Shown in pieces: positions 12,159 to 58,835 of a stretch of 64,000 nt of DNA. The notes below the pieces were generated by a model, which did not search any database, was not told where the DNA came from, and saw nothing but the letters and a program-made list of their open reading frames with translations. This stretch comes from a virus (taxonomy: Duplodnaviria > Heunggongvirae > Uroviricota > Caudoviricetes): the IMG/VR virus record IMGVR_UViG_642979322_000011. One strand, 5' to 3'. The position numbers and the translations under genes were made by a program. The first letter of the stretch is position 1, and each line of letters opens with the position of its first letter.

Positions 12159-12481
12159 TATGACGCCCTCGAGTGGTTTCTAAACTATCACCACCGTTAG
12201 GTTCGAATCATCGGGTGGTGAGACGTACAGGGTTCGAACTACCGGGAAACCAACCGGCGAGCTTTTCAGCTCCCCTATACGCCCCACCATAATTCAGATG
12301 TGCGCGTGCATACGACAATAAAAAACACGCTCGCGGCGTGTCTCTGTCGCGGTTTCTATCCGGGGTTCGAATCCCGACGGTCAACTCGACCGTGCGAAGA
12401 ATATAATCCCGGATATGTGTTGTCGTCAACAAGTGGCGTGCTATCATCGAATAGTGTTCTATCCTACTCAGTGAGGTTTAA

Positions 12482-20923: not shown

Positions 20924-21633
20924 AATGGCAGCCTCCTTGATTGGTGATTGATAACCACCGCTGGAGGTAGCAAGCTCGCTGGCGGTGGACTGTACAGGGT
21001 TGCTACAACTGGCAATCAAGGGAACCAGCCCGACCGAAGTCGGCCCCATACAGCCCACCATTGATAAGATGTGCGTGTATGTCGATACAAAAAAAAGACG
21101 CTGGCGCGTCTGTATCGCCTCGATTGTCAGCGGGGTAGCAATCCCGACACCCGTTTTATGAGGTGTTCGCCAAATATAGCCCCGACATCACACGCAGTCA
21201 ATACCGTCCTTTCTCAGAAACGCTTTGGCGGTGCCGCCTGCACCCCAAAACATTCCCTGTATTGGTCAGCGCCAACTTCCTGCCAGTGTTGCCCGTTCTC
21301 ACGCCGTTCTCGCTCTCGCGCGGGGATACTCTCTCATCGACCGGATCGCACCCGATGATACAGCACGTTTACGTGTAGGGGTCTAAACAGGTCATTGACG
21401 CTGTAAAGCTCCAGATTGTTAAAGAGCATTTTGCGGCGGGTTAAGTCGCGCCGTACGACTGATTTATGTAGCCCTGTGTAAGGGCGCGATGTTTCTGGCT
21501 TGAAATAAATATAACTTGCGGTGATTTTCATGTAAATACCGTTGGTGCTTTTTAAGGGCGAGAAATTATTACTTAACTGATTTTTAAAGTGATTTATTTT
21601 TTAAGGGGGCAGATAACAGGAGGGGATATGCAA

Positions 21634-55809: not shown

Positions 55810-56544
55810 ATGAAGAGTATAGCAACACTGGTTGTGTGTGCAATCTCCGGGATTGCCTGTGTAAATTTATCTGCACATGCAGCAGAAGGAGAGCATACAA
55901 TTTCTCTGGGGTATGCGCACTTTCAGTTTCCGGGACTGAAGGATTTTGTAAAGGATGCGACTGCTCATAACAGGGAGACTTTCAGTCATTTCGTCAACAG
56001 AAACTACTTTTCTTCATTGGGCGAATATACAGATGGTCGGGTCAGTGGATATGAAGGCAAGGATAAAAATCCACAGGGCATTAATATCAGGTATCGCTAC
56101 GAGATAACGGATGATTTTGGCGTTATCACCTCTTTTACATGGACGCGTTCTCTCACTAACTCACAGACATTTATTGATGTGCAGTCAGCCGATCATACCA
56201 GGAAGATTAAGAATCCGGCAGCTTCTGCCAGAACGGATATCAGGGCGAATTACTGGAGTCTGTTAGCGGGGCCTTCATGGCGGGTTAATCAGTACATGAG
56301 TTTATATGCGATGGCAGGGATGGGCGTTGCTAAAGTTAGCGCTGACCTGAAAATTAAGGACAATATTAACAGTAGTGGCGGATTTTCTGAAAGCAACAGC
56401 ACGAAAAAAACCTCCCTTGCGTGGGCTGCAGGTGCACAGTTTAACCTGAATGAGAGTGTTACACTGGATGTGGCTTACGAAGGTTCCGGCTCTGGCGACT
56501 GGCGCACGAGTGGCGTTACTGCTGGCATTGGCCTGAAATTCTGA
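55810..56544 (+). CDS. lom: Outer-membrane beta-barrel protein, Ail/Lom/PagC family
   Basis: Signal peptide then alternating amphipathic strands, terminal aromatic (…GIGLKF); followed by a strong terminator. Confidence 0.85.
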   Translation: MKSIATLVVCAISGIACVNLSAHAAEGEHTISLGYAHFQFPGLKDFVKDATAHNRETFSHFVNRNYFSSLGEYTDGRVSGYEGKDKNPQGINIRYRYEITDDFGVITSFTWTRSLTNSQTFIDVQSADHTRKIKNPAASARTDIRANYWSLLAGPSWRVNQYMSLYAMAGMGVAKVSADLKIKDNINSSGGFSESNSTKKTSLAWAAGAQFNLNESVTLDVAYEGSGSGDWRTSGVTAGIGLKF

Positions 56545-56566
56545 CCTGTATCCGGTAACCGTTTAC

Positions 56567-56590
56567 TACCCGCTGTGATGGCGGGTTTTT
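56567..56590 (+). terminator. Rho-independent terminator after lom
   Basis: ACCCGC-7nt-GCGGGT followed by T6. Confidence 0.65.
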
Positions 56591-56776
56591 TATTGCCCGT
56601 ACAGGGCAAAAACCGTAAATTATGCGTGGGTGCCTTTCGGCTGATGGCTGGAGGGTGAACCTGAAGGCCTGATGTGGAAAGGCCCCGAGTCAACTTAACG
56701 TTAACCCGAGGCCCTAACACTTCGTACCTTAAGCAAGTAGAAGGTTAGCGCCTCTCTGTAAAAGGAGTCAAGCGCT

Positions 56777-56917
56777 ATGTCGCAAAAATCGCTTATCACC
56801 GTCACAATTTGCATGACGGTTATCTTCACCATCTGGATGTTGCACGGTTCACTGTGTGAGTTCCGGCTGAATTTGTGGGGAGCGGAGTTTGCGGCGTTCT
56901 TACAGTGTAAGCAGTAG
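56777..56917 (+). CDS. Hok/Gef-family type I toxin-like small membrane protein (46 aa)
   Basis: MSQKSLITVTICMTVIFTIWMLHGSLCEFRLNLWGAEFAAFLQCKQ; TM helix plus SLCE-R...E-AAF motif shared with Hok/HokD; AAGGAG RBS; absent from ORF track. Confidence 0.5.
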   Translation: MSQKSLITVTICMTVIFTIWMLHGSLCEFRLNLWGAEFAAFLQCKQ

Positions 56918-56973
56918 GAAAACCGCGACGGGGACGAGAGTCCCCGTCAACTGGTTGCTGAGGTTCAGCCGAT

Positions 56974-57375
56974 ATGGCACCCGTTTCAGGTGAGAGAATG
57001 AACGATAAAATTCTCTGGTATATGCAGCGTGTTGTGAGAAATTCCCGCAACCCTGAATTTATGAATGAAGTTAAAGACGCCTGCCTTAAAAAGCAGGCGT
57101 TTTGTTTTGAGGCACCTGATGGCTTTTTGGTGCTGCGTTCTGTGCTCAGTGCTGATGGTATCCCTTATGTTCTGGTGTTGCTGGGCGTGTGTACGGGGAG
57201 TAACAGCGTTGAGCGTTACCTGCCGGAGGTGAAGACATTAACCCATCTGGCTGGCGGACGCTGGGCTGAGTTCCATACGGCAAGGCGGGGATTTATCCGG
57301 CTGGGAAAACGACTGGGCTTTGAGCGAATGCCGGATGATGAGGATGGCTTCATGGTGTTCAGGATAGCGGTCTGA
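56974..57375 (+). CDS. Hypothetical phage protein
   Basis: ORF with GAGG RBS (alternative ATG at 56998). Confidence 0.45.
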   Translation: MAPVSGERMNDKILWYMQRVVRNSRNPEFMNEVKDACLKKQAFCFEAPDGFLVLRSVLSADGIPYVLVLLGVCTGSNSVERYLPEVKTLTHLAGGRWAEFHTARRGFIRLGKRLGFERMPDDEDGFMVFRIAV

Positions 57376-58583: not shown

Positions 58584-58835
58584 ATGGGATACGGTTTACT
58601 GGATATTGCAAATCAGTCGCGGCGTGAGGCATTACAGGGAATAAGTGACGCAGACAGACGACGTGAAGAAATTGAGGCTGCGAACAAACAGATGGCGGCG
58701 CAACAGAAAGCGCAGAACAAGCAGAATATCGGTACGGGCATTGGTACGGGGGCGGCTATTGGCGCATCCGTTGGTGGTCCTGTTGGTGCTGTTGCTGGAG
58801 CAGTAATTGGCGGCATTGCTGGTTCTTTGTTTTAA
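58584..58835 (+). CDS. Small Gly-rich membrane-associated virion protein
   Basis: C-terminus GTGIGTGAAIGASVGGPVGAVAGAVIGGIAGSLF; paralogue of the C-terminus of 4148-4828. Confidence 0.45.
   Translation: MGYGLLDIANQSRREALQGISDADRRREEIEAANKQMAAQQKAQNKQNIGTGIGTGAAIGASVGGPVGAVAGAVIGGIAGSLF

Follow-up and report, generated by a model that had tools for sequence, protein, structure and literature searches.

What lies in the spacer between lom and the next gene in Stx2 phages of the 933W/Sp5/phi24B type, and what is the RNA encoded on its opposite strand? The spacer was analysed in the window, that is, the whole 64,000-nucleotide (nt) stretch of IMG/VR virus record IMGVR_UViG_642979322_000011, presented as one strand from 5' to 3'. 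The region is 100% identical to phage 933W, to VT2-Sakai (Sp5) and to many O157:H7 chromosomes, and the window holds the Shiga toxin A and B subunit genes at 31011-32251. An earlier, sequence-only reading of this DNA had interpreted 56590-56960 as a Hok/Gef-like type I toxin module, and the analysis supports that interpretation. The spacer probably holds a complete hok/sok-type type I module, carried as a moron of ~400 bp, with an antitoxin that is the precursor of 24B_1, a 20-nt RNA described in phage phi24B. The present analysis shows that the peptide belongs to the family, which sequence elements the locus contains, how they are conserved and where their coordinates coincide with 24B_1; the toxicity of the peptide, the minus-strand RNA fragment and the binding of the precursor to Hfq are taken from published papers. 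The value of the locus lies in a second, mok-less Hok module in an Stx2 phage, in the RNA anatomy laid out below and in the equation of its antitoxin with the 24B_1 precursor.

The toxin gene and its family

The plus strand of the spacer carries one short gene, which is the starting point for everything that follows.

56777..56917, plus strand: hok-family toxin gene (46 codons, ATG start, TAG stop; RefSeq WP_000078907.1; survey entry 72_1589)

The encoded peptide of 46 amino acids is MSQKSLITVTICMTVIFTIWMLHGSLCEFRLNLWGAEFAAFLQCKQ, and AAGGAG at 56762-56767 stands 9 nt 5' of the ATG, in agreement with the 46-codon open reading frame (ORF) and strong ribosome-binding site that had been noticed from the letters. 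The profile alignment that had been suggested as a check on the Hok/Gef assignment gives 33.2 bits against Pfam HOK_GEF PF01848 (E 4e-8, profile positions 6-42 of 42), above the Pfam gathering score of 22 bits, and the peptide matches PHROG 251, 'MokW-like host killing', at E 2.8e-24; the family identity is thereby confirmed. Pairwise alignments bring the LCE.R...E.A.F core into register with both Hok of R1 and HokW, and the peptide shares 30% identity with the former and 37% (over 35 residues) with the latter. A survey logo of 1264 Hok peptides has six positions conserved in >80% of them (C16, T18, L30, C31, E32 and E41), and C12-x-T14, L26-C27-E28 and E37 of the present peptide fall in those columns, as judged from the survey alignment rows for entry 1589 and from the pairwise alignments. 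Residues 6-22 (LITVTICMTVIFTIWML) are hydrophobic by direct reading of the sequence and are followed by a polar C-terminal part, which gives the layout of the family: ~50 amino acids, an N-terminal hydrophobic helix and a polar C-terminus. The best NCBIfam match is HokA NF007290 with 38.4 bits (equivalog cut-off 89), and the Hok subfamily NF007279 scores 22.7 bits (cut-off 73). Because these scores are far under the cut-offs, the peptide is a divergent branch of the Hok family and not a HokA orthologue. A PADLOC search with the 46-residue peptide gave no match.

The toxin gene is already known: it is annotated, catalogued and, according to a preprint, toxic. The RefSeq/PGAP annotation places a 'Hok/Gef family protein' on exactly this ORF, and one Pharokka-annotated phage labels it 'MokW-like host killing'. 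In the original 933W record, lom and L0129 follow each other with no gene in between, so the remark that the ORF was missing from the annotation holds for that record and fails for the RefSeq/PGAP and Pharokka annotations. Counts of 12-14 Hok genes have been given for O157:H7 genomes (Fozo et al.; PMC2887945). The identical peptide is entry 72_1589, within a high-abundance 60%-identity cluster, of the 2025-26 Hok survey, in which it was cloned under an arabinose promoter; 42 of the 45 constructs were toxic, and the only non-toxic ones were 19_179, 60_1482 and 69_1540, which do not include 72_1589 (bioRxiv 10.1101/2025.08.07.668861). Toxicity on induced expression, as anticipated by the sequence-only reading, is thus reported for the identical peptide. 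With a RefSeq entry, a place in the 1264-peptide catalogue and a reported toxicity, the gene itself adds little.

A predicted antisense RNA and 24B_1 of phi24B

Opposite the hok leader, the minus strand carries a candidate Sok-like unit with the following features.

56742..56771, minus strand: promoter of the Sok-like RNA, read from the sequence (-35 TTGACT 56771-56766, 18-nt spacer, -10 TAACCT 56747-56742)
56676..56738, minus strand: predicted Sok-like antitoxin RNA of ~60 nt (~20-nt variable 5' tail, 14-16-bp hairpin, then UUUCC ending at ~56676)
56716..56738, no strand assigned: stretch with the highest variability in the module (the 5' tail of the Sok-like RNA, with the part of the hok leader that it targets)
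56684..56703, minus strand: 20-nt 24B_1 sequence (UAACGUUAAGUUGACUCGGG), identical to HM208303 45692-45711 (loop and 3' arm of the Sok-like hairpin)

The -35 box of the Sok-like promoter overlaps the hok ribosome-binding site, and AGGTTAGCGCC is invariant in 32 aligned relatives, as is the -10 box. Relatives were gathered by a 23-nt pattern scan of viral contigs, which yielded >120 loci and 63 distinct versions of the module; the scan itself forces the invariance of 56876-56898, which is not used as evidence. On the minus strand, the fold of the Sok-like RNA reaches -41.7 kcal/mol (z -4.6). The apical part of its hairpin differs among relatives by insertions and deletions and cannot be scored in an alignment, so that per-sequence folds on both strands were used. 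In 34 of 34 distinct variants, the minus-strand form of the hairpin is the more stable one (mean -23.2 kcal/mol, versus -13.7 for the plus strand), and its G-U pairs become C-A mismatches on the opposite strand. Column conservation is 0.78 at 56716-56738, compared with 0.9-1.0 in the flanks. This stretch is likely the specificity determinant, and variability of the tail is what one would look for if it tells several copies in one cell apart. With its predicted transcript ends, the minus-strand unit has, as read from sequence and fold, the anatomy of Sok.

An RNA from this position has been described before. After induction of phi24B, a 20-nt RNA named 24B_1 was recovered as 2,223 identical reads; it maps to HM208303 45711-45692, 'between lom and vb_24B_43', and a promoter (p24B_1) with the boxes TTGACT and CGCTAACCT was predicted for it, along with a hairpin precursor of ~80 nt (Nejman-Falenczyk et al.; PMC4426718). 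The phi24B spacer is 99% identical to the window, the differences being the variable tail region and one loop base, and p24B_1 is the Sok-like promoter, with the same boxes, strand and spacer. The Sok-like RNA appears to be the published ~80-nt precursor, and the 20-nt 24B_1 appears to be a piece of the terminator hairpin of that RNA. From the likeness to hok messengers, the sequence-only reading had expected an antisense RNA over the leader; such an RNA is both predicted from the sequence and seen, as 24B_1 and its precursor, in the near-identical phi24B (PMC4426718). The words hok, sok and toxin-antitoxin are absent from three 24B_1 papers (among them PMC4426718 and PMC10732415), and searches of the open-access literature turned up no publication that joins 24B_1 with hok or with an antitoxin; one mini-review handles both separately, and a link elsewhere is possible. 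The identification of Sok with the 24B_1 precursor seems to be unrecognised so far.

The published reading takes the minus-strand transcript for the precursor of a 20-nt RNA, 24B_1, that behaves like a microRNA; its targets in trans would be d_ant, a site upstream of S and sdhB, and the Hok ORF would have no bearing on the phenotypes. The recovery of one dominant 20-nt species (2,223 reads; PMC4426718) is in keeping with it. The 20-nt sequence occupies the loop and 3' arm of the hairpin predicted here, as for an RNA cut from a hairpin precursor; a stable decay fragment, too, would come from the conserved hairpin and not from the variable tail. In vitro, 24B_1 bound an sdhB fragment weakly (8 +/- 5% bound at 100 nM), which makes this support marginal. 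The genetic evidence is that a phage with a 189-nt deletion (delta-24B_1) shows altered lysogenisation, induction and burst, with raised progeny production (PMC4426718), and that a plasmid, pUC18_24B1, has the opposite effects (PMC4426718; PMC10732415). Yet neither construct separates 24B_1 from the toxin. The deletion maps to window 56577-56765. Lost with it are the promoter and complete leader of hok, most of the hok ribosome-binding site, the antisense gene and the 3' half of the lom terminator. The insert of pUC18_24B1, as defined by the published primers, is window 56465-57030, the whole hok module including the ORF; the 2023 paper calls it the 189-nt region (PMC10732415). In a decade of work on 24B_1, therefore, the deletion and the plasmid have also removed or added the hok promoter and leader, and the plasmid has added the toxin gene. 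Given also that the RNA has a Sok-like anatomy and lies opposite the leader of a Hok gene that is intact, conserved and toxic, a purely trans-acting role with an irrelevant Hok ORF is considered improbable, although a trans role could coexist with that of an antitoxin.

The hok/sok identity of the locus gives a simpler explanation for the published 'bacterial microRNA' and invites a re-reading of the 24B_1 phenotypes. For instance, cells with pUC18_24B1 or with the prophage contain less ATP (PMC10732415), and a drop in ATP is what a leaky membrane toxin would produce. The same study found that Hfq is bound by the 24B_1 precursor and not by the 20-mer (PMC10732415). As a separate observation on the deletion phage, the halved lom terminator may let lom transcription run into the remainder of the locus.

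The predicted hok messenger and its proposed control

The plus-strand elements, together with the left boundary of the module, are as follows.

56568..56592, plus strand: intrinsic terminator of lom, left boundary of the module (stem ACCCGCTGTGATGGCGGGT, then a T run)
56593..56621, plus strand: predicted hok promoter, read from the sequence (-35 TTGCCC 56593-56598, 17-nt spacer, -10 TAAATT 56616-56621)
56628..56986, plus strand: predicted full-length hok-type mRNA of ~355 nt (from the Rfam leader match, the fold and the alignment limits of relatives)
56628..56644, plus strand: 5' element (tac-like), GGGTGCCTTTCGGCTGA, with two alternative partners
56674..56686, plus strand: internal partner of the 5' element (GTGGAAAGGCCCC), from the RNAalifold consensus
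56747..56776, plus strand: hairpin closing the hok ribosome-binding site, AGCGC-CUCU...GGAG-GCGCU, from the pair table of the minimum free energy (MFE) structure
56781..56893, plus strand: long-range pairing of 56781-56793 with 56881-56893 (ucb/dcb-like)
56926..56949, plus strand: conserved post-stop hairpin
56965..56983, plus strand: 3' element (fbi-like), TCAGCCGATATGGCACCC, which pairs with the 5' end and forms the right boundary of the module

A promoter scan gave no match at its threshold; the hok and the Sok-like promoters each agree with the consensus at 8 of 12 positions, and the hok one, TTGCCC-17-TAAATT, fell one position short of the threshold and is put forward as a putative promoter. 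Transcription is predicted to start at ~56628, at GGGTGCC. From there, the Rfam hok leader model RF01794 matches 56628-56790 over its full length with 35.6 bits (E 9.2e-6), under the gathering score of 59; chance-level weak Rfam matches to BSnc120, sX5 and GlmZ were set aside. The fold of 56628-56990 has an MFE of -155.4 kcal/mol (z = -6.7 versus shuffles) and pairs the 5' end of the messenger with its 3' end. The sequence-only reading had proposed a structured leader of ~190 nt, of which the structure stands; the length comes down to 149 nt from the predicted start, as 56590-56627 is promoter. The end of the unit has to be moved from 56960 to ~56986, since the 3' element, the partner of the 5' end, occupies 56965-56983.

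Two partners compete for the 5' element. Inverted repeats (I13 and I8) join it to 56965-56982 through GGGTGCC/GGCACCC and TCGGCTGA/TCAGCCGA, and a third (I2) joins it to 56677-56686, within an alternative pairing of the 5' end with 56674-56686 (GGUGCCUUUC/GAAAGGCCCC). The partner is the 3' element in the single-sequence MFE and 56674-56686 in the alignment consensus, in which RNAalifold pairs columns 1-14 with 47-59 in 30-32 of the 32 sequences at each position; the latter pairing becomes the MFE once the 3' end of the mRNA is removed. Across the 32 relatives, the 5'/3' helix is paired in 90% of cells, versus 26-48% when the partner is slid by 1-3 columns, and all of its changes are one-sided exchanges between GC and GU, which fit a plus-strand RNA without being proof of one. 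The GGAG of the ribosome-binding site has a probability of being unpaired of 0.00-0.02 in full-length folds of four variants. The long-range pairing, an inverted repeat (I1), is present in both the MFE and the consensus; its upstream arm, in the start-codon region, is invariant in the 32 relatives, and the invariance of its downstream arm, which lies within the search pattern, carries no weight. Past the stop codon, the inverted repeat 56927-56948 (GACGGGGAC/GTCCCCGTC, 9 bp, 100% complementary) shows compensatory changes at two pairs (GC:21/AU:11 and AU:24/CG:7/GC:1). The hairpin announced by the sequence-only reading after the stop is therefore present. As a terminator of hok it was rejected: the plus strand has no T run, and a terminator score is found on the minus strand only. 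Because of that score, and because no minus-strand gene ends there, the hairpin is probably a structural element of the hok mRNA and not its terminator. With the 5'/3' fold-back, the leader structure and the post-stop hairpin all found, the hok-mRNA architecture that had been supposed for the flanking RNA is recovered.

A frame corresponding to mok is missing. In the window, the R1-type frame opens no earlier than -28 and contains no start codon, and the 63 relatives share no conserved mok start: about half lack a start codon, and the rest vary in start and length. Two candidates were tried and rejected. A frame of 24 codons begins with the GTG at 56674 and meets a stop at 56748, short of hok, and an ATG at 56672 opens ORFs of differing frame and length. 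That ATG, within GATGTGG (56672-56674), is kept in nearly all relatives, and its ORF in the window has 8 codons; the conservation of these positions probably serves RNA pairing with the 5' end and not translation. As no conserved mok frame exists, the classical mok coupling is inapplicable here.

In R1, the full-length hok mRNA is locked by a helix between its 5' and 3' ends and is activated by trimming of the 3' end. By the mechanism proposed for the present locus, the plus strand would give rise to an mRNA of ~355 nt for a 46-residue inner-membrane toxin of the Hok family, and the full-length form would be inert, with its 5' end bound to its 3' end and its ribosome-binding site in a local hairpin. 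Exonucleolytic trimming of the 3' end would free the 5' end to pair with 56674-56686, and the CGAGGCCCUAAC released by this would then pair with GGUUAGCGCCUC (pairs from RNAalifold). The variable target region would be displayed as a stem-loop, CUCU would be drawn off GGAG, and the ribosome-binding site would be loosened. The Sok-like RNA of ~60 nt (56738 to 56676) would pair with the leader and mark the duplex for RNase III, and the same pairing would let the inhibitory hairpin at the ribosome-binding site re-form, with no need for mok. In folding calculations, the probability that the ribosome-binding site is unpaired is 0.01 in the full-length mRNA, 0.31 after 3' truncation and 0.01 when the Sok target is masked. 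Where the transcripts end, how the mRNA refolds, its repression without mok and what the module does biologically are all inferred. A further, tentative proposal, which we hold to be somewhat doubtful as a whole, combines two elements: the 24B_1 phenotypes (reduced ATP, an increase in lysogeny caused by the plasmid, and a deletion phage that is induced faster and gives larger bursts) would stem wholly or partly from gain or loss of Hok, and the antisense RNA would exert a mok-free control by re-closing the hairpin at the ribosome-binding site.

The absence of mok also raises the idea of a decaying hok remnant, in which the ORF survives and is never translated, as at several chromosomal hok loci of E. 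coli K-12. Such a remnant could explain the sub-threshold Rfam and NCBIfam scores, and single relatives do look damaged: one (L082, 9694-10044) has its promoter and 5' element lost or replaced, and another (L048, 10439-10797) carries uncompensated changes in the 5' element, the toxin ORF being intact in each. These two copies are probably inactivated. Across the family as a whole, in contrast, the ORF (46-47 amino acids), the ribosome-binding site and the RNA elements are kept in 63 of 63 distinct copies from two phage types, the start-codon region is invariant at synonymous sites, and the module is found in 1675 of 5426 complete E. coli genomes (~31%), with up to 8 copies per genome. Meanwhile, the antisense specificity region diversifies and the structures persist; conservation combined with a diversifying specificity region points to selection and not to decay, and a remnant is judged highly improbable.

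The distribution of relatives also defines the extent of the module. Similarity among them begins at the hok -35 box (~56593), is lost to the left of that point, and ends just past GGCACCC; divergent E. coli copies align over window 56608-56982 only. These limits match the predicted transcription unit, and therefore the transcription unit is the unit of inheritance. A type of ~82% identity stands downstream of ogr at the end of P2-like prophages, so that the same moron is carried by two unrelated phage types, lambdoid and P2-like. In two copies (L125, 3001-3350, from UTI89; L126, 3001-3373, from E. coli O18), the module was seen directly 3' of an ogr/Delta-like gene, by serS or a tRNA cluster. 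A branch as widespread as this one, and lacking mok, is a natural test case for the control of Hok mRNAs without translational coupling.

Several observations weigh against a complete hok/sok-type module with 24B_1 as its antitoxin. One concerns timing: in phi24B, the ~80-nt product of reverse transcription PCR (RT-PCR) was absent before induction and present at 80 min (PMC4426718). This is opposite to what is expected of a lysogen-guarding antitoxin and to the behaviour of sokW; the RT-PCR may not be strand-specific and may also detect the hok leader. As for the structures, double-sided compensatory change is absent from the 5'/3' helix in the 32 relatives, and the base of the Sok hairpin likewise has one-sided changes and no double-sided covariation. 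As for the ends of the RNAs, a short U tract (UUUCC) follows the Sok hairpin, the promoter scan made here found no terminator at its threshold, and no intrinsic terminator was found for the 24B_1 precursor (PMC4426718). The plus strand has no terminator inside the module; the 3' end of the mRNA would be fixed by trimming as far as the terminal helix, or by a terminator in the surroundings, for instance the 57078-57100 hairpin. The Rfam and NCBIfam scores lie under their curated cut-offs, the mechanism offered in place of mok coupling is a folding prediction only, and the opening of the truncated mRNA is weak in three other variants (0.03-0.11).

The possible function that the sequence-only reading had in mind was stabilisation of the prophage or phage exclusion. 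The only knockout phenotypes at the locus, those of the delta-24B_1 phage, point instead to the lysis-lysogeny balance. By analogy with hokW-sokW, the most likely role of the module would be modulation of lysis timing or of the lysis-lysogeny balance after induction.

Surroundings and known Hok systems

To the right of the module, the next ORF (56974-57375; L0129 of 933W, PHROG 610, function unknown) has an annotated ATG at 56974 that overlaps the 3' element of the hok mRNA. Because the PHROG 610 profile begins at residue 9, the evidence suggests that the real start is the ATG at 56998 (MNDKIL...). Inside this ORF, a plus-strand hairpin (ACGCCTGC/GCAGGCGT, then TTTGTTTTG) lies at 57078-57109, where the scan listed the minus strand; it overlaps the weak Rfam matches to BSnc120 and the 3' end of GlmZ, and it might end read-through from the hok unit. 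Elsewhere in the window, two pairs of C4 antisense RNA and isrK stand on the minus strand (12211-12393 and 20978-21166, ~8.8 kb apart; Rfam, above gathering), three tRNA genes precede stx2A (30669-30917), the small RNAs STnc100 and AsxR lie just past stx2B (32326-32585), and an ALIL pseudoknot, a frameshift signal of the IS3 family, marks an insertion sequence inside the prophage (38614-38730).

The module resembles hokW-sokW in that both are type I modules of the Hok family within one Stx2 phage genome, and identity of the two loci was considered and rejected. The window contains none of the hokW primer sequences, the peptides differ, and hokW-sokW lies on the opposite (minus) strand at 933W (AF125520) 58737-58786, ~13 kb downstream; the window ends at the equivalent of 933W 52883. 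HokW of Sp5 has 51 amino acids (MKQQKAM...DYESEK; survey entry 35_712), is made after mitomycin C treatment and goes to the inner membrane, and sokW is complementary to the 5' untranslated region of hokW, is present before induction, is lost after it and relies in part on RNase III and Hfq (Takada et al. 2021; PMC8621323). Deletion of hokW-sokW halves phage release (PMC8621323), whereas the 189-nt deletion at the lom-side locus is reported to raise progeny, so the knockout phenotypes appear to be opposite. Phages of the 933W/Sp5/phi24B type thus have two Hok modules that differ from each other, and of the two only hokW-sokW has been studied as a toxin-antitoxin system; two hok genes per phage are found in only 3.5% of hok-bearing phages (10.1101/2025.08.07.668861). 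The same survey places the present peptide in its cluster 72, in which both the identical 72_1589 and the P2-prophage type 72_1621 were listed, cloned and tested; it dealt with coding sequences only, and Sok, mok and mRNA structure were explicitly set aside (Escalera-Maurer et al.; 10.1101/2025.08.07.668861).

With hok/sok of R1 the module shares a small membrane toxin of the same Pfam family. The likenesses among RNA elements are drawn from the R1 literature and not from an alignment: a long-lived, highly folded mRNA in which the 5' end is paired with the 3' end and has an alternative internal partner; an antisense RNA of ~60 nt that ends in a long hairpin facing the leader and has a promoter with its -35 box over the hok ribosome-binding site; and a hairpin after the stop codon. 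Unlike hok/sok of R1, the module is phage-borne and not plasmid-borne, encodes a peptide of 30% identity, has no mok frame and no terminator of its own past the 3' element, and scores below the Rfam gathering threshold. With 24B_1, finally, it has place, strand, promoter and sequence in common; the difference is one of reading, a trans-acting analogue of microRNAs in the published account and a cis-antisense antitoxin, or a fragment of it, here.

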